From the NCBI GenBank assembly GCA_009711705.1, contig VENG01000008.1:99535-163534 (forward strand): a DNA stretch of 64,000 bases. The letters run 5' to 3'. This stretch comes from Bacillota bacterium (lineage in GTDB: Bacteria; Bacillota; Desulfotomaculia; Desulfotomaculales; VENG01). This document shows positions 17,156 to 51,989 of this stretch, in pieces. The notes under the pieces were generated by a model. That model was not told the origin of the DNA. It worked only from the letters and a program-made list of their open reading frames with translations, and searched no databases. The translations under genes were made by a program, and so were the position numbers. The number at the start of each line of letters is the position of its first letter. The first letter of the stretch is position 1.

Positions 17156-19066
17156 TTATTGATTGGTTAGGTCTAATTCCTGCAGCTTATCCGGCAGCGG
17201 CCTGCCTGTTTCTTGATTCCACCCGCGGGCTTTGTAATACTCCTTTAGCACTTCTGCAACTTTTTCCCGGTCCAGGGTTTTGCCTGAAGACGAAGGTTCA
17301 TCGTAAAATCGGGCTGGGAAACGGGAGTCTTCCGGCTTTTCTCCGTGACGGATATTGAAAAGCTTTTGTAAATTCCAGGTGCGTTCCCCTGCCTTGATGA
17401 TTTCTTCCGGGGTGGTATCTATGCCGGTAAGGGCGGCGTACAATTCCGAGATCAGGGTTGGTCCTACCGTATGCAGTACCGGCGGGCGAATACAAAGGCC
17501 AACTGCATTGTACAGAGATATTAAGTCTTCCGACCATTTGCTCATTTGGGGTATGTCCACGTCCCCGGTTTTGGGGTCAAAAATTCTTTCTTTCAGGATT
17601 TTAGGTATGTCCAGGGTTTGTAACATTTCATCGGGAAACGAAAATTTTTCGGTGCGGTACGGGCGGGGATTATCATTATGGCGTAGATTCTCCACCGGGT
17701 TTCTTGTACGCAGGTGGTCACCGCCCCTTATATTTGTGATGTATCCCAATGTCCATGTAGACCAGCGGGCGCGCGGGTCAATGAGCATACATTCCAAACC
17801 CTTAACGTGAACACAATATTTCTCACTACCTGCGATTTTTTCCGCTGCCCGTTTGGTGCCTTCAGCTAAGATATCGCCAAAACCTTTCCTGTGAGCAATA
17901 TTTTCAATAAGCTTGATAGTGGTTGCCTGGTTTCCCCAGTTGAGTTTGAAGCCCAGCTCAGATTCGTTAATGATCCCCTTTTGGTAGAGTTCCATGGCAA
18001 AGGCAACAGCCCCGGCGGCGGAAACCATATCCAGGCCCAAGCGCTGGCAAACTTCTGTAAGCTTGGCCACTGCAGACAGGTTGTCGATATCACAGCCGGC
18101 GCCGAAAGCAATTACCGGTGTTACTTCCATATCTTTAAGCTGCAAGCCGGCATAAGGGCCGTCTTTTATTTCCACCCAGTGTGCACACGCTATGGGACAT
18201 GCCATACAGGCCACGCCCCGCTTAGTGTAGTGATGAAGTTGTTTCCGGGTGCGGGTACTTTCCCAGCCTTCAATGGTACCGGTTTGGTAGTTGCGACCCG
18301 GTAGGATACCATGTTCCTGGTAGGGAATGGTAACCAGCATGGTACCGTATTTGCTAAAAGGCTTATAGAATGGCGAATCCATTATGGCCTGGCGGGTTTT
18401 ATTAACAGACCGCAGAAATTCATTCTTGTAAGCTACTCTGACAGCGCCGGTACCCTTTACCGCGATAGCCTTTAAGTTTTTAGAGCCCATCACGGCACCC
18501 AGCCCGGTGCGGGCCCACGCGTCGTAAGGCCCGTTTTCAATGCTGGCGTAGCGAACCATATTTTCACCGGCCTGGCCGATACAGGCTACTTGCGCTTCTG
18601 CGTTCTGTTTACTGCGTATGGCGCGAATGGTTTCCCAGGCGTCCAAACCCCAAATATTTTGAGCAGAAATGATTTTTACTTTACTGTCGTTTATCTGTAG
18701 GTATACGGGTTTTTCGGACTTTCCTTTCAAGACAATGACATCAAATCCGGCAAACTTTAACTCTCCGCCCCAATAATTACCTGAACTTGAGGTACCGAAT
18801 AAACCGGTGGCAGGCGAAAGGGAGGAAACTTCCGTTCTACATGCCGTGGGAATATTAGTCCCACAGAAAACCCCTGTGCTGAAAATAAGCACATTTTCCG
18901 GGCCGAGAGGGTCGGCGCCGGGTGGAATATTATCATACAGAATACGTGCGTTGAAGCCCGTACCGCTTAAATACATGGTCTGTAAACTTCTATCCAAAAG
19001 CTGTTCAGTTATGGTATGATCGGTTAGGTTAATAATTAGCATTTTCCCTGCGTACCCGTAAGCCAT
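17156..19066 (-). CDS. aor: aldehyde:ferredoxin oxidoreductase family (tungstopterin enzyme)
   Basis: N-terminus MAYGYAGKMLIINLTD; Cys motif GVACMACPIACAHW. ATG 19066 overlaps the upstream gene's stop (TAATG). The track start 19159 lies inside the ferredoxin gene. Confidence 0.85.
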   Translation of the reverse strand: MAYGYAGKMLIINLTDHTITEQLLDRSLQTMYLSGTGFNARILYDNIPPGADPLGPENVLIFSTGVFCGTNIPTACRTEVSSLSPATGLFGTSSSGNYWGGELKFAGFDVIVLKGKSEKPVYLQINDSKVKIISAQNIWGLDAWETIRAIRSKQNAEAQVACIGQAGENMVRYASIENGPYDAWARTGLGAVMGSKNLKAIAVKGTGAVRVAYKNEFLRSVNKTRQAIMDSPFYKPFSKYGTMLVTIPYQEHGILPGRNYQTGTIEGWESTRTRKQLHHYTKRGVACMACPIACAHWVEIKDGPYAGLQLKDMEVTPVIAFGAGCDIDNLSAVAKLTEVCQRLGLDMVSAAGAVAFAMELYQKGIINESELGFKLNWGNQATTIKLIENIAHRKGFGDILAEGTKRAAEKIAGSEKYCVHVKGLECMLIDPRARWSTWTLGYITNIRGGDHLRTRNPVENLRHNDNPRPYRTEKFSFPDEMLQTLDIPKILKERIFDPKTGDVDIPQMSKWSEDLISLYNAVGLCIRPPVLHTVGPTLISELYAALTGIDTTPEEIIKAGERTWNLQKLFNIRHGEKPEDSRFPARFYDEPSSSGKTLDREKVAEVLKEYYKARGWNQETGRPLPDKLQELDLTNQ

Positions 19067-19332
19067 TAATTGGCACCTCCTTCGGTGTGACCGGTATTGT
19101 CCGGTACATTCATACTGCGTATTGCCCCTGAGGGGCATGCTTTTGCACACTGGTGACAACTTTTGCAGCTAGACAAGAAGGATATTAGAAAAATACCCTC
19201 AAAGTCATATTTAGTGATTCTGATATGAGATTTAGCCAAATCAAATTCCCCCTGGTTAGCGAGGGAACACGTGAGGGCACATGTGGAACAGCCAATACAT
19301 TTTGCGGGGGTGATGATTAGTTCTTTTTTCAT
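19066..19332 (-). CDS. 4Fe-4S dicluster ferredoxin-like protein
   Basis: CIGCSTCALTC and CKSCHQCAKACP motifs; translationally coupled to aor. Confidence 0.75.
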   Translation of the reverse strand: MKKELIITPAKCIGCSTCALTCSLANQGEFDLAKSHIRITKYDFEGIFLISFLSSCKSCHQCAKACPSGAIRSMNVPDNTGHTEGGAN

Positions 19333-22198: not shown

Positions 22199-22426
22199 CA
22201 AAGAAATTTAGACTGCTTGCTTGTCTGATATGTAAACTATACTTTACATATCTTTTACTAACTGGTTACATAATTAACAGGTAGACTAGAATATGAAATT
22301 GGGTTCTATCGCGGAAATCTCGTCTCTGCTTAAAAATAATGAATTTTCTAAATTTACAGGTATTATTTTTGCAACATTTTTTTATAAATTGGTAAGTTAA
22401 AAAGGAATTAGATAAGGAGGGTTTCG

Positions 22427-25802: not shown

Positions 25803-25953
25803 CAACGGGGTTACGCCCCAGAGTTTATAGATAAAACAGTGATTATATGATTTTTCAGGGGGGTGATAAGGTAGGTCGGCTTTTATTGTTGGAGAGAGTT
25901 GGGTTTGTTCAGGAGTGTAGGTAAATACTGAAAGGGAAAAGGAGGACTTATCC

Positions 25954-26949
25954 ATGGATTTTGCCATTTCTGGAATTCATGCTAACCCCATTTGGATTAT
26001 TGTTTGGGGCATTTTAACCGGATATGTTTTTTCTACCGTTGGTGCTGCGGGTGCTGTTTTGACCCTTATTGGACAGGTTTCACTGTTTAAGATTGATAAA
26101 ATCATGCCCAAACACTTGATGGCACAGGGTATGGGTGAGGCGGCAGCTACTGCACAAGCCAAAAATACAATCAAGGTACACAACTTGATGGCTGTTATAT
26201 TGTCACCGATCATCGCGGTACCCAAGTACTTTAAGGAAAAGCGGGTGGCCATCCCACTGGCCTTATGTGTTGCAGCCGGTGTTGTATTCGGTGCCCTTAT
26301 TGGACCACAAATCCCCATGTCCTTAAAGGCGTACAAGTTTGGTTTTGGGGTTATTACTTTCATAATTGGTTTACGTCTTGCATATGAGACTACAGGTATC
26401 TACCGCTCGAAGAAACAGAAGCTAAATGAAGTTTCCAAGGCCTTTGAATCCAAGGTAAAAGAAATGAAACAAAGTGGTAACTGGGATGCCCTGGCTACGG
26501 AAGGTTTTAAGGTTAACAACTTCAGCATTAAAGGATTAAACTTTACTTTCTGGGGACAGGAATTTTCCATTAACCCCATCATAGCAGCAGTTGGCGGTTT
26601 CTTCATTGCTATTATTGCATCCATGTTTGGTCTGGGCGGCGGCTTCATGTTGGTTCCATACTTGTCTTCCATCTTCGTACTGCCCATGTTCATGGTTTCC
26701 GGTACTTCCATTCTCATCGTGCTTGTGAACTCAGTGGTTGCTATTGGGAGTTACGTGGCCAAGGGTGCTACTCCTGACTTCCTGTACATTGGATTTTTCC
26801 TGGTCGGTGTTGCCGGTGGATCGTATCTTGGACCGGTTTTCTCCAAGTTTTACAAGGAAAAGTACTTGCGGTGGCTTTTGGCATCAATACTTCTGTTCTA
26901 CGGTCTGAGGTTTATGGGTGTTTGGCAAGCCCTTGGATTAGGCATCTAA
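25954..26949 (+). CDS. TauE/SafE (DUF81) family anion exporter
   Basis: Two 4-TM halves with a long charged central loop; VGAAGAVLTL and GLGGGFMLVP motifs. Confidence 0.7.
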   Translation: MDFAISGIHANPIWIIVWGILTGYVFSTVGAAGAVLTLIGQVSLFKIDKIMPKHLMAQGMGEAAATAQAKNTIKVHNLMAVILSPIIAVPKYFKEKRVAIPLALCVAAGVVFGALIGPQIPMSLKAYKFGFGVITFIIGLRLAYETTGIYRSKKQKLNEVSKAFESKVKEMKQSGNWDALATEGFKVNNFSIKGLNFTFWGQEFSINPIIAAVGGFFIAIIASMFGLGGGFMLVPYLSSIFVLPMFMVSGTSILIVLVNSVVAIGSYVAKGATPDFLYIGFFLVGVAGGSYLGPVFSKFYKEKYLRWLLASILLFYGLRFMGVWQALGLGI

Positions 26950-27509: not shown

Positions 27510-28751
27510 TTAAATAAACGAAAACAAAACTACAGATATTGCAGCGCCGGCGAGAACCAGCCAGAGAGTATCAAGTTTTGTATAGCGTTGGGCGGCAACA
27601 GCCCCCAGGGCCATTAGCCATGTAGGTATATCCACCAGGATGTCGTTAGTTAATCTAATAACCACGGCCCACAAAGTTCCGATAAATGCAGCTACCACTC
27701 CGCGTACCACCAAGCGGATACTGGGTACCTGCCCGGCCCGGCGGTATAAATCGGCGGTAAGGTTGATAATGCAAAAAGTGGGAATGTAAATATTTATTGT
27801 GGCCACCAGTGCCCCTGTTAAACCTGCTGCTTTGTAACCGATAAAAGTGGCAATTTTGGTTAATGGGCCCGGGGTTACTAAACTCAAGGCCAGAGCTGTA
27901 GTGAATTGCTGCGTGGTGATCCATTGATAATGATTGACGGCTTCTTCCTGGATAAAGGGCAACATGGCGTATCCGCTGCCAAAAACCAGGCCGCCTAATT
28001 CCATGAACGTAGTGCCCAAGTTCGTAAAGACTTTTGTGGTGCTGATTAAGGCAATATCTGCAGTCACCAGGGCGGCAACCAGGCCCACAGTATAACCCAG
28101 CTTTTTCCTGTCAATTGGTTTAATTTGGGTTTTTTCAATGTTCTGCTCTTTGGTGAGCCCGGCCATTTTTTCTGCCCACCAGGGAGAGCGCCGGCCTAAT
28201 ATGACAAAGGTGATGCTGAACAAGGTAGCCAGCAGGAGAATCCAGTAGATACTTAAATTCAGCCAGTAAATTAATACAAAACCTCCAATGGCCAGAACCC
28301 AATTCTGCTTATTGGTCACCCCTGATTTCCACAGGTTAAGAACAGTGTTGATAACCAGCCCCACCACCAGTGCCCCCAACCCTTTAAACAAGTTGGATAC
28401 TATAGACAGGTCACGGTATTCAGTATAAAGATAAGTAAAAACAACCATAAATACAAATGCCGGTAGCAGATAAGCTATAGCGGCGCAGGCTGAACCCCAG
28501 AAGCCGCGCAGTCGTTGTCCCAGGTATATCATTAGACTTACCGCCGGTGCACCTGGTAGAATTTGTGAGAAACCAACCCCCTGCAGGTATTCTTCATCAG
28601 TAAACCACTTCTTCTCTTTTACCAGCCAATTTTTTGCTTCCCCCAGAGCGGCTAGACTAAAGGATACAGCCCCAATTCGTAAAAAGGTAAGGCAAATTTC
28701 CGGCAACGAGGCGGTTTTTATATTGTCCCGGGGAGTTGTTTTTTCTGACAT
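27510..28751 (-). CDS. chrA: chromate transporter ChrA (two fused CHR halves)
   Basis: FLRIGAVSFS...ILPGAPAVS in half 1 and GGLVFGSGYAMLPFI in half 2. ATG 28751 follows AAGGAGAGG. Confidence 0.8.
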   Translation of the reverse strand: MSEKTTPRDNIKTASLPEICLTFLRIGAVSFSLAALGEAKNWLVKEKKWFTDEEYLQGVGFSQILPGAPAVSLMIYLGQRLRGFWGSACAAIAYLLPAFVFMVVFTYLYTEYRDLSIVSNLFKGLGALVVGLVINTVLNLWKSGVTNKQNWVLAIGGFVLIYWLNLSIYWILLLATLFSITFVILGRRSPWWAEKMAGLTKEQNIEKTQIKPIDRKKLGYTVGLVAALVTADIALISTTKVFTNLGTTFMELGGLVFGSGYAMLPFIQEEAVNHYQWITTQQFTTALALSLVTPGPLTKIATFIGYKAAGLTGALVATINIYIPTFCIINLTADLYRRAGQVPSIRLVVRGVVAAFIGTLWAVVIRLTNDILVDIPTWLMALGAVAAQRYTKLDTLWLVLAGAAISVVLFSFI

Positions 28752-28863
28752 AGTGTCCTCTCCTTGGTAATGAGCTTTCTTGACAGGGTAGCAGGCCATA
28801 ATAATCTGCCAGGCGCGGGTAGATTAATTTGATCTGGGTCCAAAGGTATTTTTATCGAGGTAT

Positions 28864-35290: not shown

Positions 35291-36448
35291 TTACACAGCT
35301 ATTATTTTGCGCTTAAGCAGTTCTTGCAGCGCGATGCCGGCTAAGAAACCTGCTCCCATATTCCACATCCCAAATCCAGCCGTAACGAGAAGGATATAAA
35401 AGTCTTCTTTCTCTCTACCCACATCTCTGGCACTTACCGCTAGCTCAAGACCGGCAAATAAAAGAATTACACCCAGTATGCACTCGGGAAAGATTTTAAA
35501 GATAAGGGCTACTGAGTTGCTAAAGAAAAGAGCCAATACAAGTAGTATGCAACCAAGTATTACAAGGGATCCGCCGGTTCTAGCCCCGAACCTGACGTGA
35601 CCGGCCATACCGCCCGCCCCGTGACACATGGGGGTGCCGCCGAAAATAGGTGATACCAGGTTCATTATGCCCTGCGAAACGGCAATTTTCTTTTCGGTTA
35701 CCGGCCTGTCCGGAAAGAGCCTATTATTTTCAGCAGTGATAGCAATGACGGCGTTCCCCAGTGTGAGTGGTATTTGAGGTATACCGAGTATTAGTGTCCC
35801 TTTGACAAAGTCCTGCCATGTTACACTGGCCACGGCCAGTTCAGGCATTCTAAAACCTATTTTAATTTGTGCCAGCTGACCAAATAGAGTAGGATCACGG
35901 AAAATGGCTACTGCTACGCCCACAACGAGAAGAACAAACATAGCCGGAACCTTTTTACCCTTGAGCAAGAAAAATGTAAGCAGCAAGGCAAATATGGCAA
36001 TTGCCAAATCACTCTGCATCTTTTGTATACCATCTTTAACGAACAAAAGCCCCAGGCCAAGTACAATACCTCTTATCACCGGCTTGGTTGCTATTTTGGA
36101 AATGTGATTTAGCATTCCCGTTAACCCCATAATAAGCCAGAAAAAACCGGTGAAAATTCCTGCCCCTAACACCATACTTGGTGTCAATGCCCCGGCACTG
36201 GTAATGGCTGCACCGCCTATAGCCTTCATGGGCTGGATGGGCAGTGGAGTCTTATAATACGAGCCCCCGATAATCATTAAGATACCAAACATAAACAATA
36301 CCCCGAGCGGGTCCATCTTCATTACCGTTATGTAGCCAACTATAAAAGGTATAAGGGTGCCCAGGTCACCAAAGGCACCGGCCCACTCCATGCGGTCAAA
36401 TTTGTTTTTAAGCTTTGTTGGTGCGGTTGGTTCCGTTTGAGTTTTCAT
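35291..36448 (-). CDS. MOT1/SulP-related putative molybdate/sulfate-type oxyanion permease
   Basis: WAGAFGDLGTLIPFIVGY and PIQPMKAIGGAAI resemble plant/algal MOT1 motifs (GDLGTxIP, PxQPMK). Confidence 0.6.
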   Translation of the reverse strand: MKTQTEPTAPTKLKNKFDRMEWAGAFGDLGTLIPFIVGYITVMKMDPLGVLFMFGILMIIGGSYYKTPLPIQPMKAIGGAAITSAGALTPSMVLGAGIFTGFFWLIMGLTGMLNHISKIATKPVIRGIVLGLGLLFVKDGIQKMQSDLAIAIFALLLTFFLLKGKKVPAMFVLLVVGVAVAIFRDPTLFGQLAQIKIGFRMPELAVASVTWQDFVKGTLILGIPQIPLTLGNAVIAITAENNRLFPDRPVTEKKIAVSQGIMNLVSPIFGGTPMCHGAGGMAGHVRFGARTGGSLVILGCILLVLALFFSNSVALIFKIFPECILGVILLFAGLELAVSARDVGREKEDFYILLVTAGFGMWNMGAGFLAGIALQELLKRKIIAV

Positions 36449-43869: not shown

Positions 43870-44397
43870 TCAAACCAATACAACCACCATTTCCTTTAAA
43901 GACTCCAACAAATCCTCGTTCCCCGGTTCCCAAATGACAGGGCATTCCTCCAGCTTTTTCCCCCCATTGACCATTTGGGCGGCAAAAGCCAAACAGGTTT
44001 GCTCGCCGCACCGGCGGCAGCCGGATTTTTGGGGCAGCCAGCCGTAAAGCACAAGGGGAGTGGGCCTGGAGCGCCTTTCATAAACAGGCTCAATGGTTTC
44101 CCTGTCAACATATGTTTTATTTATTAAGTCTTTCACCCAGGCAGCGGTTTCATCTGCATCCTCTTCGCTCAGCGCCTTGGCCACTGTTACTTCCCAGGGG
44201 TAAAGGGTAATCAATCTTTCGTCCTTGGTCATAGAGAGTACCTTGCCTTCATGATTATATACTGCATTTTTTTGGACCGCATTAAGATACGGCATTAAGC
44301 TGGTAATGTCATCAGAAAAAATGGCTCTGAATCTTATTCGATTGGGCACCACTATACATGGTGCTACGCTTGTAATCTTAATATCTTTTAAAAACAT
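43870..44397 (-). CDS. Fe-S-binding protein (RnfB/CFeSP N-terminal-type cluster domain)
   Basis: CRRCGEQTCLAFAAQMVNGGKKLEECP. ATG 44397 follows TAAGGAGG. Confidence 0.55.
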   Translation of the reverse strand: MFLKDIKITSVAPCIVVPNRIRFRAIFSDDITSLMPYLNAVQKNAVYNHEGKVLSMTKDERLITLYPWEVTVAKALSEEDADETAAWVKDLINKTYVDRETIEPVYERRSRPTPLVLYGWLPQKSGCRRCGEQTCLAFAAQMVNGGKKLEECPVIWEPGNEDLLESLKEMVVVLV

Positions 44398-44772
44398 AAG
44401 TTTTACCTCCTTAAGAAACACCTGCGACTATTCAATCTGTTATACCGCACGGGCGTTATCAGATTAACCTTCACTTGCGCCTTTTTTTATCTTATTTTCT
44501 GCCAAAAGCAACAATCTTTCCGGTTCCATGGTTTTCTCGTCTTTAAATAACGGCTGCATGAAATAAATACAATTTTTAATAGCCTGTTATTTTCCGGCTC
44601 TGTTTTTCTACCCGTAACAAAACACCTGTTGTTAACACTTAGCCCGCACTGCCCACAGCCCTGAATAGTAACACCCCCCTATTTTTTATTTTGGACTTCC
44701 GTTAATAAATCAATAGTTATATAATTATAGTATAAAAGTAAATGCCTGCCAACTATTTATAGTAAACACCCA

Positions 44773-44801
44773 TTGACAATATTCAAACATAAGGATATTA
44801 T
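44773..44801 (+). promoter_or_regulatory. sigma-A-type promoter of the arsR-trx-permease operon
   Basis: TTGACA (44773..44778), 17-nt spacer, TATTAT (44796..44801). Confidence 0.6.
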
Positions 44802-44811
44802 TATATAAATC

Positions 44812-45231
44812 ATGACTAATAAGGAGATGAGAAAGATGAGTATAGATAATTACGTCAAGATTTTTAAAGCTTTGGGTGAGCCCTCGCGATTACGAATGTT
44901 AAAAATATTGTCGGTAAGACCCATGTACGTGTGTGAGCTGGAGAAAGTGCTGCAAATGAGCCAGCCGAGAATATCCCAGCACCTGCGGGTAATGAAGCAT
45001 GCCGGGCTGGTAACAGAGCGCAAGGAGGCCCAGCGTACCTTTTACGCCCTTAAAATTGATTATCTTGATGAACAGTTTAAAGAATTGCTGGAATTCTTCC
45101 ATGCAGATTTGGAAAGCCTGCCGCTTTTTATCGAGGAATACCAGCGGCATAAAGAGCTGGAGGAGGATTCCGGAGTGGCACAATGTAAGGAAGGGAAAAC
45201 AGAGGCGGTAAAATTGGAGCAGGAGGCATAA
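44812..45231 (+). CDS. ArsR/SmtB family metalloregulator
   Basis: LGEPSRLRMLKIL...VCELEKVLQMSQPRISQHLRVMKHAGLV. The likelier start is ATG 44836, 9 nt after AAGGAG. Confidence 0.85.
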   Translation: MTNKEMRKMSIDNYVKIFKALGEPSRLRMLKILSVRPMYVCELEKVLQMSQPRISQHLRVMKHAGLVTERKEAQRTFYALKIDYLDEQFKELLEFFHADLESLPLFIEEYQRHKELEEDSGVAQCKEGKTEAVKLEQEA

Positions 45232-46813: not shown

Positions 46814-46867
46814 GCAAGTGGGGACGGTTCTTGCTTGCCCGGGCAAGCAAGAACCGTCCCCACTTGC
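46814..46867. terminator. perfect 54-bp palindrome between convergent permease genes
   Basis: GCAAGTGGGGACGGTTCTTGCTTGCCC|GGGCAAGCAAGAACCGTCCCCACTTGC; 27-nt arms, no mismatch. Confidence 0.8.
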
Positions 46868-46877
46868 ACATTTGTAT

Positions 46878-47843
46878 CTAGACAACCCACGGCCCTATGG
46901 CATTAAAAACATAGCCGGTAAATATAATGGCCAGGGCTACCACGGCAATAAAGACACCGATCAGTTGGGGCTTAAGGACCTTGCGTAGGATAATCATCTC
47001 GGGAAAGGACAGCGCCGTTATGGACATCATAAAGGCCAGTGCCGTTCCTATGGCGATTCCCTTGCCTAAAAGAGCCTGGATGACCGGTATTGTTCCCACC
47101 GCGTTGGAATAAAGGGGAACACCCAGCAGCACCGCAATGGGTATGGCAAATAGGTTACCCGGCCCAGCCCACCTGGTGATAAGGTCTTCCGGCGCGTAGC
47201 CGTGAATGCCTGCTCCAACGGCTATACCGATAACAACGTAAATCCAGATCCGACCCACAATGTCTTTGACATTGTCCCAGGCGTACTCCACCCGGTCTCG
47301 CCAGGTCATTTCAGGCAGTTCAGCACCCGCTACGCCTACTCTCTTTTTAAATACATAATCCTCAACATAGCTTTCCATCTTTAGCTTACCAATTATTATA
47401 CCGCCGATTACGGCGATTATTACCCCGCTGACCGCGTAAATGGCGGCCAGTTTCCAGCCCAGTGCGGCTATAAGCAACACCACCGAAACTTCGTTAACGA
47501 TAGGTGAGCTGATAAGAAATGAAAAGGTAATTCCCAATGGAATGCCCGACTCAACAAAGCCTATAAATATAGGCACGGAAGAGCAAGATCAGAAGGGGGT
47601 AACCGTGCCCAGCACGGCAGCGGCGGCGTGCCCGGTGTATAAACTGTAGCCGCTTAGTAATTGCCGGGTTCTCTCCGGTGGAAAAAAACTGCGTACTATG
47701 CTGATAATAAATATCATTACAGAAAGAAGGATAATTATTTTAATGGTATCGTAAACAAAAAAGTTTATAGATTCACCCAGGCGGGTGTGTGGAGCAAGCC
47801 CCAGCAAAGTATATACAACATAATCAGCAAAGTTTTGAATCAC
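46878..47843 (-). CDS. DUF318/ArsP-type permease interrupted by a single in-frame TGA (47591..47589)
   Basis: Track ORFs 47589..47843 and 46878..47576 share one frame. Joined: ...GTVTPF-TGA-SCSSVPIFIGFVESGIPLG. GTG 47843 lies 8 nt after AGGAGG. Confidence 0.65.
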
Positions 47844-47986
47844 TTGGACAACCTCCTTCTAAGTATATAATGGCCGTTACAAGTTAATTTAATCATTGAT
47901 TAACATAACAAAAGAACACAACTGAAGTGAGGAAATGCTGCACTGGTGTGGAATTACATGTGTAGTTTTGGTATTGAATTTACTTA

Positions 47987-48010
47987 ATATATAAATTAGA
48001 ATTTATATAT
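47987..48010. promoter_or_regulatory. 9-6-9 palindromic operator ATATATAAA-TTAGAA-TTTATATAT (site 1)
   Basis: Located in the divergent promoter region between the TGA-permease and the radical SAM gene. Arms identical to site 3. Confidence 0.55.
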
Positions 48011-48108
48011 CTTCACCTATTTATTTACGTTCCGGAATGAAACAACTTCTGGTTTATTTTAATACAAAGCGCGTATTTTTTTAGAACAGTTAATCGAGGA
48101 GGTTGTAT

Positions 48109-49254
48109 ATGACCGGCAATAAAAAGACCTTTACCGAAACCAGTTTTAAAACTCAAGGCCCGGAGGATGCTCTGATCATTAAGTGCGAGGACGGCTGGCA
48201 CGTAATTCCCAGGGTTCCCGATACCCAAAAATTATATATTGAAGCAACTACACACTGTAATTTTTCCTGCACCACCTGCATCCGCAATTCATGGCAGGAC
48301 GACTTGTCACATATGGAGTGGCCTGTTTTTGAGCGCATTTTAGACAGCATCCCACATTTGCCTCAACTGGAGCGCGTGCACTTTGGAGGTTTTGGCGAGC
48401 CTTTCAGCCACCCGCGTATTCTGGAAATGTTAGCGATGGTTAAAGAACGTAGAGTGAAAATAGAAGCAATTACCAACGGTTCTTTGCTCACGGAAAAAGT
48501 AATTAATAAACTGGTTGACATACAGATGGATAAAATATTTATATCCCTGGACGGCCCCGACGAGGAAGAATACTGCAACATAAGGCAGGGAGCTAATTTT
48601 TCCGGAGTTCTGGATAACATTAGAATATTAAACAAGATCAAAGAACGTAAAGGTGTCCGTTTACCTGAACTGGGAATAGAGTTTGTGGCCACCAAAGACA
48701 ATTACCATAAAATGCCGCAAATGGCGTCCCTGGCCTCGAAACTGGGGGCCCGTCAATTAATTATTACCAATGTACTCCCGTATAATGAAGAAATGAAAGA
48801 TCAAATTCTGTATGATATGGATGATACAGATATAACCTTTGGGCATAATTCACCCCTTTTGCTGATGCAGGCACATTTGCCATATATGAAGCTGCGTACC
48901 GAACGCTACTGCAAGTTTGTCGAGGACAAGGCCATGGCAGTTAACCACAAAGGGTTTATCTCACCCTGTTACGCTTTTATGCACAGGTACAGTTGCTTCA
49001 TTTACGACCGGGAGAAAGAAATATACCCATTTTATATGGGTGATGCAAGTGAAAAGCCTTTGAATGAAATATGGACCAGCCTTACTTATATTAATTTTAG
49101 GCGGGAAGTAAAGGATTTCCGTTTCCCTTCCTGTACGGACTGCAAATTCCTGGACGGGTGTTCTTATACAGAAACCAATGAAGGCGACTGCTGGGGTAAT
49201 ACACCTTCCTGTGCCGACTGCCTTTGGGCCAGGCAGATAATCACCTGTCCATAA
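48109..49254 (+). CDS. radical SAM / SPASM-domain enzyme
   Basis: CNFSCTTC (CxxxCxxC) and a C-terminal Cys-rich SPASM-like region (CTDCKFLDGC...CWGNTPSCADC). ATG 48109 lies 7 nt after GAGGAGG. Confidence 0.75.
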   Translation: MTGNKKTFTETSFKTQGPEDALIIKCEDGWHVIPRVPDTQKLYIEATTHCNFSCTTCIRNSWQDDLSHMEWPVFERILDSIPHLPQLERVHFGGFGEPFSHPRILEMLAMVKERRVKIEAITNGSLLTEKVINKLVDIQMDKIFISLDGPDEEEYCNIRQGANFSGVLDNIRILNKIKERKGVRLPELGIEFVATKDNYHKMPQMASLASKLGARQLIITNVLPYNEEMKDQILYDMDDTDITFGHNSPLLLMQAHLPYMKLRTERYCKFVEDKAMAVNHKGFISPCYAFMHRYSCFIYDREKEIYPFYMGDASEKPLNEIWTSLTYINFRREVKDFRFPSCTDCKFLDGCSYTETNEGDCWGNTPSCADCLWARQIITCP

Positions 49255-49291
49255 GAATATTGTAATTGACAAAGGGTTATTGTTAATATTA

Positions 49292-49315
49292 TTATATAAG
49301 CAACAATTTATTTAT
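49292..49315. promoter_or_regulatory. degenerate 9-6-9 operator TTATATAAG-CAACAA-TTTATTTAT (site 2)
   Basis: 15 of 18 arm positions match sites 1/3. Overlaps the putative -10 downstream of TTGACA 49266..49271. Confidence 0.4.
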
Positions 49316-49340
49316 GTATAATAGGGAGTGTTATTAAGAA

Positions 49341-49586
49341 ATGGCAAATTGTTGCGACCCAAAAGCACCAAGAGTTTTTCAAATCCAAGTGGGAGACGGG
49401 CCGGTCGGCATTACAGGACTTGACCGTGCAATATCGGAAGTAAAGGCCATGGAGCCATTATCTGAAGAAAAGGTCAAGGAAGAACTATTTAAGAAAATAA
49501 AGGCACATAACTATATTCCTGACTCAGCCAGGGAAAAGTATTGTGTGGCTTTGTTTAGAGAATATCAAAAAGCTAAAAAAAGTTAA
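49341..49586 (+). CDS. 81-aa hypothetical protein with N-terminal vicinal Cys pair
   Basis: MANCCDPKAPRVFQIQVGDGPVGITGLDRAI...; weakly spaced SD. Confidence 0.5.
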   Translation: MANCCDPKAPRVFQIQVGDGPVGITGLDRAISEVKAMEPLSEEKVKEELFKKIKAHNYIPDSAREKYCVALFREYQKAKKS

Positions 49587-49633
49587 AGCAAACTTCAATG
49601 TATCAACAAATGAGGTTAAAAAATTTTTTTAAT

Positions 49634-49657
49634 ATATATAAAAATATATTTATATAT
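49634..49657. promoter_or_regulatory. 9-6-9 palindromic operator ATATATAAA-AATATA-TTTATATAT (site 3)
   Basis: Abuts the acr3 SD (AGGAGG). Confidence 0.55.
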
Positions 49658-49671
49658 TAGGAGGCTAAAAG

Positions 49672-50736
49672 ATGACGGAAACAGTTACCCGTAAACTCCC
49701 TTTTTTAGAAAGATATTTAACTGTATGGATATTCCTAGCCATGGCAGTTGGTGTGGGTGGAGGATATATTTATCCCTCTGTCGCGGAATTCTGGGGTAAA
49801 TTCCAGGTGGGAACCACAAATATACCCATTGCCATTGGTCTCATTATTATGATGTACCCTCCGCTGGCCAAGGTGAAATACGAAGAAATTGGTAAAGCTT
49901 TTAACAATACTAAAGTAATGGGACTTAGCCTTTTTCAAAACTGGATTGTGGGCCCCATCTTGATGTTTATATTGGCTGTGGTTTTTCTTAAGGATTTCCC
50001 TGAATACATGGTGGGTGTGATCCTGATCGGTCTGGCCCGCTGCATTGCCATGGTCATCGTGTGGAATGTACTGGCCAAGGGTGACACAGAATATGCCGCC
50101 GCTTTGGTAGCATTAAACTCCGTTTTTCAGGTACTCCTTTTTTCTGTTTACGCCTACATTTTTATTACCGTGCTTCCACAATGGCTTGGCCTCAAATCCT
50201 TGGAAATAGATATTTCCATGGCGGAAGTGGCCAAAAGTGTATTCATCTACCTGGGCATCCCCTTCATTGCCGGCATTATAACCCGTTTCACGCTCATGCC
50301 GGCCAAAGGTAAGGAGTGGTATGAAAATAAGTTTATTCCCAAAATCAGCCCCCTCACCCTGGTAGCGTTGCTCTTTACCATCGTGGTGATGTTTTCACTA
50401 AAGGGGAGCTATATAGTAGCTTTGCCCATGGATGTATTGAGGATAGCGGTTCCACTAGTAGCCTATTTCCTTATCATGTTCTTCTTCTCATTCTTCATCA
50501 GTAAAAAGGCCGGGGTAAACTACGAGCAGGCCACCACTTTGTCCTTTACTGCCTCCAGCAATAATTTCGAGCTGGCCATTGCAGTGGCTGTGGCGGTATT
50601 CGGCATAAATTCCGGGCAGGCACTGGCCGCGGTTGTCGGTCCCCTTATCGAAGTGCCCATAATGATCGGGCTGGTTAATGTTGCCCTGGGCTTCAAGCGT
50701 AAATATTTCGGTGACCAATTGGCAAACGCTAAATAG
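49672..50736 (+). CDS. acr3: ACR3-family arsenite efflux transporter
   Basis: [17 protein letters not shown]...[18 protein letters not shown]...[11 protein letters not shown]; 354 aa. Confidence 0.85.
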
Positions 50737-50802
50737 TAGCAAAAAATAAGCCGGGAGTGGTCAATTTACTCTCCCGGCATTATAATTACCGGAGTGAAAA
50801 GT

Positions 50803-51165
50803 ATGAAGGAATTTCTTCGTTTCTTAAAAATCATTGCCGATGACACCAGGCTGAAAATAATCGATATGCTTTCTCACCATGATATGTGTGTATGCGAAAT
50901 TATGCACCGGCTGAATATGTCCCAGCCCGCCGTATCTCATCACTTGAGGGTGCTGAAAAAAGAGAAAATAGTTTTAGACGATAAGGACGGCCGCTGGGTT
51001 TTTTACTCCCTGAATAAAGAAGCATTTTTCAATCAAGTGGAACATCTAAACACTGAGTTGTTTAACAGCATGCGGGAGAACCTTCGATGTCGTACCACTA
51101 CACGTGACTACGAGGCATGTAAAAGGATTGAGAATACTTTATGCTCACATAAAACAGCCAGGTGA
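50803..51165 (+). CDS. ArsR/SmtB family metalloregulator
   Basis: IADDTRLKIIDML...MCVCEIMHRLNMSQPAVSHHLRVLKKEKIV. ATG 50803 lies 8 nt after GGAG. Confidence 0.85.
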   Translation: MKEFLRFLKIIADDTRLKIIDMLSHHDMCVCEIMHRLNMSQPAVSHHLRVLKKEKIVLDDKDGRWVFYSLNKEAFFNQVEHLNTELFNSMRENLRCRTTTRDYEACKRIENTLCSHKTAR

Positions 51166-51266: not shown

Positions 51267-51989
51267 TTGAAGATTGCAGTTCTGTCCGATATACATGGAA
51301 ATAAACATGCCCTGGACACAGTTTTGGCTGATATACACAGCCGCGAACCAGACATGGTTGTTTGTCTGGGTGACCTGGTAGGTTACGGGGCATTTCCTGA
51401 TCAGGTGGTGCAAACCATTAAAGCAGCAGGTATTCCCACGGTTATGGGGAACTATGATGATGGCATCGCTAACCAGCGCATGGTCTGCGGCTGTGACTAT
51501 AAAGATGAAAAGGCCGCTGAATTGGGTGTTAGATCTATTACCTGGACACTGGAAAATACCGGTAAAGAAAGCAAGGACTTCATGCGGTCTTTGCCGGAAA
51601 AGATGATTGAGAAGATAGGTGATTATAAAATATTGTTTGTTCACGGCAGTCCCCGCAGGTTAAATGAATATCTTTTCGAAGACGTGCCTGCCGGAGAGAT
51701 TACTTCCATGATGGAAGATGCCGGGGTCAATGTACTGGTTTGCGGCCATACCCATATCCCTTACCATCGCGTGTTGGAATCCGGCGCTCATATAATAAAT
51801 GCCGGTAGTACGGGCAAGCCCAAGCACGGTGACCCGAAGGCGGTATTTGCTCTGGTAGAGGTGGATAAGGATATTGAGGTTACCTTTCTAAAAGTTCCGT
51901 ATGATTACGAGGTTGCCGCCGGTGCCGTGGAAAAAGCCGGGTTGCCGGTGGAATTTGCAAATATCATAAGGACAGGTAAAGACGATTAA
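51267..51989 (+). CDS. metallophosphoesterase (YfcE/MJ0936-like)
   Basis: DIHGN, GDLVGYG, GNYD and GHTH motifs; TTG start after AAAGGAG. Confidence 0.8.
   Translation: MKIAVLSDIHGNKHALDTVLADIHSREPDMVVCLGDLVGYGAFPDQVVQTIKAAGIPTVMGNYDDGIANQRMVCGCDYKDEKAAELGVRSITWTLENTGKESKDFMRSLPEKMIEKIGDYKILFVHGSPRRLNEYLFEDVPAGEITSMMEDAGVNVLVCGHTHIPYHRVLESGAHIINAGSTGKPKHGDPKAVFALVEVDKDIEVTFLKVPYDYEVAAGAVEKAGLPVEFANIIRTGKDD

Follow-up and report, generated by a model that had tools for sequence, protein, structure and literature searches.

The stretch of DNA analyzed here, 64,000 nucleotides of contig VENG01000008.1 from a Desulfotomaculales bacterium (hereafter the window, W), contains four copies of an AT-rich palindromic box at the promoters of an arsenic-type gene island. 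From sequence comparison, we consider it likely that these palindromes are operators of an ArsR/SmtB-family homodimer, most likely the island-encoded ArsR2, which would be released by As(III) and would control three units: a gene for a radical S-adenosylmethionine (radical-SAM)/SPASM enzyme, a gene for a small Cys-Cys protein (the mini-protein), and acr3-arsR2-phosphoesterase. The sites themselves, their conservation, their position relative to predicted promoters, their co-occurrence with the ArsR2 clade, and their match to a published operator are each observed here.

Sequence and frequency of the boxes

The boxes, listed without a strand and scored in bits against the weight matrix described below, are as follows.

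47987–48010: box 1 (site 1), perfect 9-6-9 palindrome ATATATAAA-TTAGAA-TTTATATAT; 21.1 bits; predicted operator of the radical-SAM promoter
49292–49315: box 2 (site 2), TTATATAAG-CAACAA-TTTATTTAT, degenerate right arm; 14.7 bits; predicted operator of the mini-protein promoter
49634–49657: box 3 (site 3), perfect palindrome ATATATAAA-AATATA-TTTATATAT; 21.1 bits; 2 nt 5′ of the acr3 Shine–Dalgarno sequence (SD)
44785–44808: box 4, AAACATAAG-GATATT-ATTATATAA; 14.8 bits, third-best match in the window; within the arsR1 promoter

All three palindromes reported by the first-pass annotation could be read back, sites 1 and 3 as perfect repeats and site 2 with three mismatches (15 of 18 arm positions); its count of three, however, had missed the box in the arsR1 promoter (44785–44808) and is corrected to four. 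The consensus is (W)WATATAAR-N6-YTTATATR, with a 9-6-9 geometry that can equivalently be written 7-8-7. Boxes 1 and 3 hold TATATAA-N8-TTATATA exactly, and boxes 2 and 4 agree at 5/7 core positions on arm-to-arm comparison. Direct reading places the acr3 SD (GGAGG) at 49660–49664 and the acr3 ATG at 49672.

A palindrome pattern allowing up to three mismatches matched six times in the 64-kb window, as compared with 0.12 ± 0.36 times in dinucleotide shuffles, none of which reached six; the exact 9-mer half-site occurs in five copies in 64 kb, four of them within sites 1 and 3. A symmetric weight matrix was built from 20 training sites, all from other genomes, scoring the arms only against a background of 70% AT; its four best matches in the window are site 3, site 1, box 4, and site 2. 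The concern that such motifs might be no more frequent than expected in AT-rich DNA was addressed within the window with a stricter null, a third-order Markov chain derived from the window's own AT-rich DNA (69% AT). Under this null, 0.0045 matches per kb reach 14 bits; the window holds four such matches, every one at island promoters. Across the 315 kb of loci compared, matches of at least 12 bits fall almost exclusively at cassette promoters. Both the shuffle and the Markov nulls lie far below the observed counts, placing the sites beyond chance.

Two further sites in the window were considered as regulon members and set aside as weak candidates, given scores of only 10.9 and 12.0 bits and, in the first, an altered core. 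The first, at 22228–22251, has a nitroreductase gene on one side and a DUF6125 gene on the other and is a perfect 9-6-9 palindrome, ATATGTAAA-CTATAC-TTTACATAT (10.9 bits), in a promoter-like setting (TTGCTT-16-TATACT). Because G replaces the invariant A in both arms, this palindrome probably serves another regulator, which may be a paralog. The second, at 25827–25850, is a weak box, ATAGATAAA-ACAGTG-ATTATATGA (12.0 bits), approximately 100 nt 5′ of a TauE/SafE-family exporter gene (25954–26949); the ars-type island of Desulfofundulus (L026, one of the L-numbered related loci compared with W) is also bordered by a TauE gene.

Overlap with predicted promoters

In a promoter scan, every box overlaps a predicted sigma-A-type core promoter, either at the −10 hexamer or in the −35/−10 spacer.

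47974–48002, + strand: predicted promoter of the radical-SAM gene, TTGAAT-17-TAGAAT; −10 (47997–48002) inside the box 1 spacer
49266–49295, + strand: predicted promoter of the mini-protein gene, TTGACA-18-TATTAT, 11/12; −10 overlaps the box 2 left arm
49629–49658, + strand: weak candidate promoter of acr3, TTAATA (49629)-18-TATATT (49653), 9/12; encloses box 3
44773–44801, + strand: predicted promoter of the arsR1-trx-permease operon, TTGACA-17-TATTAT (44796–44801), 11/12

Boxes 1 and 4 each cover both spacer and −10, and box 2 begins within the −10 and covers the likely transcription start; the earlier description of site 2 as overlapping the likely −10 after TTGACA (49266–49271) is borne out, the −10 (TATTAT, 49290–49295) reaching into the left arm. 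At the acr3 site, the right arm in orthologous loci terminates in TATAAT or TATAAA. As the mini-protein gene has no terminator 3′ of it, box 3 may also block read-through from the mini-protein promoter.

Conservation in related loci

A search of GTDB genomes with ArsR2 recovered orthologs 58–65% identical in Desulfoscipio geothermicus, Desulfallas sp., two Desulfotruncus species, a Desulfotomaculum metagenome-assembled genome (MAG), and a Peptococcaceae MAG, as well as a near-identical MAG (L019, Soudan_19) and distant archaeal ArsRs. The cassette of radical-SAM, mini-protein, acr3, arsR, and phosphoesterase genes was mapped, whole or in part, in the ortholog loci by tblastn. The box is kept at the orthologous radical-SAM, mini-protein, and acr3 promoters in W, L001–L009, and L012–L019, in genomes of Desulfoscipio, Desulfallas, Desulfotruncus, Desulfotomaculum, and Peptococcaceae (at least five genera). 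Among orthologous promoters the arms are constant and the spacers variable. The ATAA and TTAT cores are present in 24/24 compiled sites, across which the six spacer positions hold 0.08–0.44 bits each; the core count lacks independence and weighs against too strong a reading, since the compilation was chosen partly by core matches; the independent evidence is therefore the positional conservation at orthologous promoters.

At the radical-SAM promoter, counterparts of box 1 occur in L001–L006, L012, L013, L017, and L019. The promoter across loci consists of TTGCAT or TTGAAT, 17 nt, and TA(G/A)A(C/A)T (TTGCAT-17-TA(G/A)ACT in L012, L013, and L017), with the −10 within the spacer of AAATATAAG-N6-TTTATATAT. 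Orthologs of box 2 outscore box 2 itself, with a perfect 7-6-7 palindrome in L007 (ATATAAG-CAATAT-CTTATAT, 20.1 bits) and scores of up to 20.7 bits in L015–L017. The TTGACA-N17/18-TATTATATAAG block of the mini-protein promoter is kept in L002, L007, L010, and L013–L017; across loci, TTGACA-N17/18-TATTAT leads into TTATATAAG-N6-TTTATAT, and L013–L016 carry an additional box approximately 35 bp 3′ of the mini-protein promoter box.

The acr3 site across loci reads ATATATAAA-N6-TTTATATAA and occupies the same position as box 3 in L012, L013, L014, and L018. L002 and L007 have a symmetric variant, ATGCATAAA-N6-CTTAT(G/A)CGT, that is, ATGCATAAA-N6-CTTATGCGT; such paired changes in the two arms (ATGCATAA...TTATGCG) are as expected for a site bound by a dimer. 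In L010, which lacks acr3, a stretch of 167 bp holding nothing but a gene remnant separates the box promoter from the downstream arsR2. Box 4 is also found in L019 (at 1003), and a related box lies 5′ of an arsR1-like gene in L018.

A different gene set accompanies the box in a Desulfoscipio MAG (L011 3134–8374), where a 17-bit box is followed by a GcvH-like lipoyl-carrier gene, acr3, and arsR2, and then by genes for a small thioredoxin-like protein and a dihydrolipoamide dehydrogenase; a lipoate-protein ligase gene lies upstream. The locus may be an arsenite module based on lipoyl chemistry that shares this operator.

Candidate repressors

Two ArsR/SmtB genes flank boxes 1–3.

50803–51165, + strand: arsR2, ArsR/SmtB family; HTH_5 61.9 bits; NF033788 95.5 versus a cutoff of 55; downstream of acr3
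44836–45231, + strand: arsR1, ArsR/SmtB paralog 34% identical to ArsR2; single Cys in helix α3; first gene of arsR1-trx(ArsE-like)-ArsP permease

ArsR2 is the best candidate binder of the boxes. An alignment with eight orthologs shows an invariant DMCVCEIM segment (CVC, Cys-X-Cys in helix α3) and an invariant recognition helix, MSQPAVSHHLR. ArsR2 thus combines the ArsR/SmtB winged-helix domain with the α3 Cys-X-Cys pair of a type 1 site; the third α3 Cys is absent, a residue that is dispensable in R773 ArsR (bioRxiv 10.1101/2022.10.17.512643). No locus with an ArsR2 ortholog (identity of 58–65% or higher) is without a box scoring at least 17 bits, and the loci with an ArsR 27–51% identical (L020–L028, L030) have no box of at least 14 bits. 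Among the latter, the distant radical-SAM/acr3 islands L026–L028 and L030, whose ArsRs are 44–46% identical to ArsR2, were rejected as carriers of the box at 14 bits despite retaining radical-SAM, acr3, and ArsP-family permease genes nearby, together with a varying subset of mini-protein, phosphoesterase, ArsR, and thioredoxin-like genes. The first-pass annotation had argued from identical arms and spacing at three promoters for one repressor; that the sites serve one type of repressor is supported by retention of the boxes in at least five genera, their overlap with promoters, the match to the Bacillus subtilis AseR operator, and the constant company of arsR2. It had pointed to two ArsR genes, at 44812 and 50803, without choosing between them; the comparative evidence favors ArsR2, and the arsR1 start at 44812 is probably too far upstream. 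An SD (AAGGAG, 44821–44826) and the predicted transcription start indicate that ArsR1 probably begins at ATG 44836.

Several points weigh against assigning the boxes to ArsR2 in this way. The ArsR2 loci were gathered by searching with ArsR2, so that its presence in every one is partly by construction, and ArsR1-type genes might lie beyond the flanks compared. ArsR1 and the Bacillus cereus ArsR share a recognition helix of the form MSQPxISQHLR, which makes cross-binding by the paralog possible; the ArsR of L027 has a helix nearly identical to that of ArsR2 (LSQPAVSHHLK) yet no such box, and the helix alone is therefore no predictor. The acr3 promoter call is weak (9/12), and box 3 might have no dedicated promoter and act instead on read-through from the mini-protein promoter.

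The strongest alternative, though we judge it unlikely, is that ArsR1 (44836–45231), or both paralogs, bind the boxes, in which case ArsR2 would not be the sole regulator and the effector might not be inorganic As(III). Box 4 lies within the arsR1 promoter; the ArsR1 helix, MSQPRISQHLR, resembles those of ArsR2 and of the B. cereus ArsR, whose promoter has the box; and the ArsR1-like genes of L018 and L019 also have related boxes upstream. However, boxes 1–3 are kept in L001–L007 and L012–L017, which have no arsR1 within 6–10 kb, and no boxes are weaker or more divergent than those of the arsR1 type, which score at most 14.8 bits. The L010 box promoter, moreover, has no complete gene separating it from the downstream arsR2.

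It is considerably less probable that a regulator outside the ArsR family, encoded elsewhere, reads the palindromes and that the neighboring ArsR genes are coincidental. Many regulator families use AT-rich palindromes, and the related perfect palindrome at 22228–22251 is distant from any ars gene; that site, however, alters the otherwise invariant core in both arms. The box is identical to the AseR operator as published, is seen again in B. cereus at the promoter of an arsR gene, and tracks the ArsR2 clade, being gone where the ArsR is 44–46% identical though the other genes remain. The least credible explanation is that no protein binds the palindromes specifically and that they arose by chance in AT-rich intergenic DNA, belong to promoters or UP elements in general, or form hairpins in the transcript: the regions are approximately 70–80% AT and −10-like hexamers inside the boxes could make part of the conservation that of promoters, but neither null approached the observed count, both arms (including the arm outside the −10) are symmetrically conserved across genera, and a 9-bp A/T stem would form a weak hairpin, mostly 5′ of the predicted transcription start, with no Rfam match and no conserved leader structure.

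An additional element in this region is a stem-loop, GCCGGGAG...CTCCCGGC, at 50750–50778 in the acr3-arsR2 intergenic region, which has no T-tract and is conserved in L012, L013, L014, and L018. It may be an attenuator or an mRNA-processing/stability element setting the pump-to-repressor ratio; Bacillus CDB3 ars1 is attenuated by an analogous hairpin (PMC4562236).

Proposed regulation

ArsR2 is the preferred binder on comparative evidence; repression by occlusion and release by As(III) we infer from the behavior of the family. Each box has half-sites ATATAAR and YTTATAT, 6 bp apart. In the absence of metalloid, ArsR2 dimers on the boxes would block RNA polymerase at the promoters of the radical-SAM gene, the mini-protein gene, and acr3-arsR2-phosphoesterase; since arsR2 belongs to the last of these operons, we propose that it represses itself. 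Binding of As(III) or a related trivalent metalloid to the Cys-Val-Cys of helix α3 would weaken the affinity for DNA, and the three units would be derepressed jointly. The arsR1-trx-ArsP operon, with a weaker box of the same type, could be cross-regulated or served by ArsR1.

The placement of the radical-SAM and mini-protein genes in an arsenic-type regulon, suggested by the first-pass annotation, stands as a prediction, given the boxes they share with the island and their synteny with acr3, arsR, and phosphoesterase genes. It follows from the conserved operators, the match to the published box, and the accompanying CVC-containing ArsR.

The divergent permease and RNA elements

46878–47843, − strand: ArsP_1-family permease, with an in-frame TGA (47589–47591) in a U-S-C motif; divergent from the radical-SAM gene

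The TGA stands for the first Cys of a conserved C-S-C motif (PF-U-SCS), and a hairpin resembling a selenocysteine insertion sequence (47559–47574, z = −2.45) lies 14 nt 3′ of it; the permease is probably a selenoprotein. A USC variant has been described for the SO_0444 family (bioRxiv 10.1101/2022.07.06.499078).

Relative to the permease, box 1 is located 144 nt 5′ of the start, and the permease had initially been linked to this box as well. No minus-strand promoter overlapping or near box 1 passed the promoter scan, and the box stays with the radical-SAM promoter where the divergent gene is Ldh (L001–L006) or where the permease is gone: near-identical L019 lacks the segment corresponding to approximately 46871–47878 (an indel comprising gene and ribosome-binding site; L019 3930–4000), and its radical-SAM promoter and box 1 are intact. 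As box 1 tracks the radical-SAM promoter whatever lies upstream, the link to the permease is unsupported.

The L019 indel junction immediately follows the hairpin at the end of the other permease gene. In the window, a near-perfect GC-rich hairpin with 26-nt arms (46814–46867) lies between the convergent permease genes and is a candidate bidirectional terminator.

An RNA element in the radical-SAM leader (48011–48108), seemingly conserved between W and L002, was considered and rejected, with no Rfam match, zero RNAalifold pairs over six sequences, and a single-sequence folding z score of +0.46. Searches of the boxes and leaders for structured RNA, riboswitches, or terminators gave no relevant Rfam match, nor any structure conserved among the leaders.

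The radical-SAM enzyme and the mini-protein

The remaining cassette genes are as follows.

48109–49254, + strand: radical-SAM/SPASM enzyme; TIGR04317 425.9 bits versus a cutoff of 380; Radical_SAM and SPASM domains; CX3CX2C
49341–49586, + strand: mini-protein, 81 amino acids; N-terminal CCDP (starts MANCCDP); no Pfam or NCBIfam family
49672–50736, + strand: acr3, arsenite efflux transporter; TIGR00832 462.5 bits versus a cutoff of 282.8; SBF
51267–51989, + strand: metallophosphoesterase, last cassette gene; domain search and conserved synteny

The order in the window is arsR1, an MTH895/ArsE-type thioredoxin-like gene, an ArsP_1 permease gene, a second ArsP_1 permease gene (− strand), and then the genes for the radical-SAM enzyme, the mini-protein, Acr3, ArsR2, and the metallophosphoesterase. 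Homologs of the radical-SAM enzyme are automatically named "tungsten cofactor oxidoreductase radical SAM maturase" (TIGR04317, Cmo-like). That family name rests on genomic association with an aldehyde:ferredoxin oxidoreductase (AOR) gene; no AOR gene stands beside the radical-SAM gene here, the sole AOR gene in the window (17156–19159) lying 29 kb away. Homologs down to 57% identity, in at least eight genomes, lie beside acr3, arsR, phosphoesterase, ArsP, and Trx genes; such ars-type neighborhoods were found in Desulfofundulus, Desulfotomaculum nigrificans, Desulforamulus ferrireducens, and a Peptococcaceae MAG. A Clostridium homolog, 53% identical, is solitary. The synteny of the radical-SAM and mini-protein genes with acr3, arsR, and phosphoesterase persists even in genomes with a different operator.

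Only three close clusters of the mini-protein were found in a database of 5.8 billion proteins, and all of their contigs carry the cassette from the radical-SAM gene to the phosphoesterase gene. Among its 356 distant relatives, an initial CCDP is typical and fusion to a Thioredoxin_3/ArsE-like or DUF2703 domain is frequent; the ArsE-type domain has been tied to organoarsenical resistance operons (bioRxiv 10.1101/2022.10.17.512643). A confident AlphaFold2 model (pLDDT 87) predicts a β-hairpin and three helices with a flexible Cys-Cys N-terminus, and this fold has no PDB match with E below 0.9.

The module is eroded in several lineages: L019 (4218–4956) has an internal deletion in the radical-SAM gene and a shortened mini-protein gene, L014 (4494–4744) keeps only a promoter and a 48-amino-acid remnant, and L017 (4395–4548) has lost the mini-protein gene. 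These lineages retain acr3-arsR2-phosphoesterase and the promoter boxes.

Tentatively, the radical-SAM/SPASM enzyme and the CCDP mini-protein may constitute a previously unrecognized anaerobic arsenic-handling module of Desulfotomaculia. One possible activity is O2-independent formation or cleavage of a C-As or S-As bond in an arsenical by radical chemistry; another is maturation of a Cys-Cys carrier that would bind As(III) and feed Acr3. Enzymes that depend on O2, such as the C-As lyase ArsI, cannot work in strict anaerobes. When the literature was searched for radical-SAM enzymes encoded in anaerobe cassettes with acr3 and arsR, only ArsL (arsinothricin) surfaced. If the arsenic-module reading is true, the TIGR04317 name is wrong for this clade. 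The Cmo-like enzyme of the ars island could still serve the AOR, since the AOR gene has no adjoining radical-SAM maturase gene.

Through the control they are predicted to share with an arsenite pump, the two genes, unannotated or probably misannotated, yield a concrete hypothesis on the arsenic biology of strict anaerobes. The same cassette is carried by cultured organisms, Desulfoscipio geothermicus DSM 3669 (L013) and Desulfallas sp. Bu1-1 (L012), and the 24-bp matrix can be used for locating arsenic regulons in genomes of sulfate-reducing Peptococcaceae.

Other genes in the same 64 kb include the AOR gene (17156–19159, − strand), a MOT1-type molybdate transporter gene (35291–36448, − strand), and a chromate transporter gene (27510–28799, − strand). 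Divergent from arsR1 is a gene for a PF04060 "FeS" domain protein with an N-terminus like that of the carbon monoxide dehydrogenase/acetyl-CoA synthase gamma subunit (43870–44421, − strand); this protein recurs in the ars-type islands L014 (3131–3712) and L028 (5244–5774), there beside a zf_CopZ/BFD protein.

Comparison with known systems

The closest likeness is to the AseR/Bacillus ArsR operator. The B. subtilis AseR operator, TATATAACGATTTGCTTATATA (i.e., TATATAA-N8-TTATATA), is called a conserved site for arsenic-resistance regulators in a 2025 review (PMC12607644, citing Harvie et al., 2006); its sequence is taken here as quoted in that review rather than from the primary paper, which tempers the comparison. 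In Bacillus sp. CDB3, a promoter fragment with a 22-bp inverted repeat is shifted by ArsR, which arsenite but not arsenate releases; the forward primer used contains ...TTGAATATATAAGCG (PMC4562236). In B. cereus, the promoter of a plasmid arsR-acr3-arsC-arsD-arsA operon carries ACATATAAG-TGTATG-CTTATATAA 22 nt before the start codon, which scores 20.1 bits though it was not in the matrix training. These systems (B. subtilis ase, CDB3 ars1, and B. cereus plasmid arsR-acr3-arsCDA) share with the window the arms and geometry of a 22-bp inverted repeat, a box in the promoter of an arsenite-efflux operon encoding its own ArsR-family repressor, and Cys in helix α3. In the window, the boxes overlap predicted promoters of the island genes, arsR2 lies behind box 3 and arsR1 behind box 4, and this layout is kept in orthologous loci. 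Unlike the Bacillus systems, the island uses the box at three to four separate promoters, and arsR2 follows acr3 in its operon instead of leading it; ArsR2 and the B. cereus ArsR are only approximately 36% identical.

Classical ArsR/SmtB proteins (SmtB/CzrA, Escherichia coli R773 ArsR, Staphylococcus aureus plasmid ArsR) are alike in being winged-helix dimers that bind an imperfect inverted repeat near their own promoter and are released by a metal or metalloid, but their half-site sequences and spacings differ from those of the window boxes. The SmtB/CzrA operator is a 12-2-12 inverted repeat, a geometry that direct reading did not find in the window boxes. In matrix scans, the S. aureus plasmid arsR promoter, with a ATCTATATAGAT-type repeat, and the Lactobacillus plantarum arsR-arsA promoter had no box; a box universal for Firmicutes ArsR is thereby ruled out, and the box belongs to one branch of the family. 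The statement of the first-pass annotation that ArsR/SmtB proteins typically bind AT-rich inverted repeats thus fits the AseR/Bacillus ArsR box but is imprecise for the family, given the 12-2-12 operators and the S. aureus ArsR without the box. The R773 ArsR site, at −64 to −40, lies upstream of the −35 and not over the core promoter (PMC12607644).

Other parts of the island resemble known systems as well. ArsR-ArsE(Thioredoxin_3)-ArsP operons of the organoarsenical type, such as the As-induced ArsR5-ArsP-ArsE of P. mercurii ND132, have the same gene set as the arsR1-trx-permease operon of the window; homologs of the mini-protein often carry Thioredoxin_3, whereas the window protein is free-standing and paired with a radical-SAM gene. 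The radical-SAM enzyme is like TIGR04317/Cmo in score and SPASM architecture and unlike it in having ars-gene neighbors instead of an adjoining AOR gene.

The operator is of a known type and extends the Bacillus AseR/ArsR box to sulfate-reducing Peptococcaceae. To our knowledge, neither a radical-SAM/SPASM enzyme nor a CCDP mini-protein has been reported in an ArsR regulon. The content of the predicted regulon is new, with a Cmo-like radical-SAM/SPASM enzyme and a CCDP mini-protein sharing putative control with an arsenite pump.

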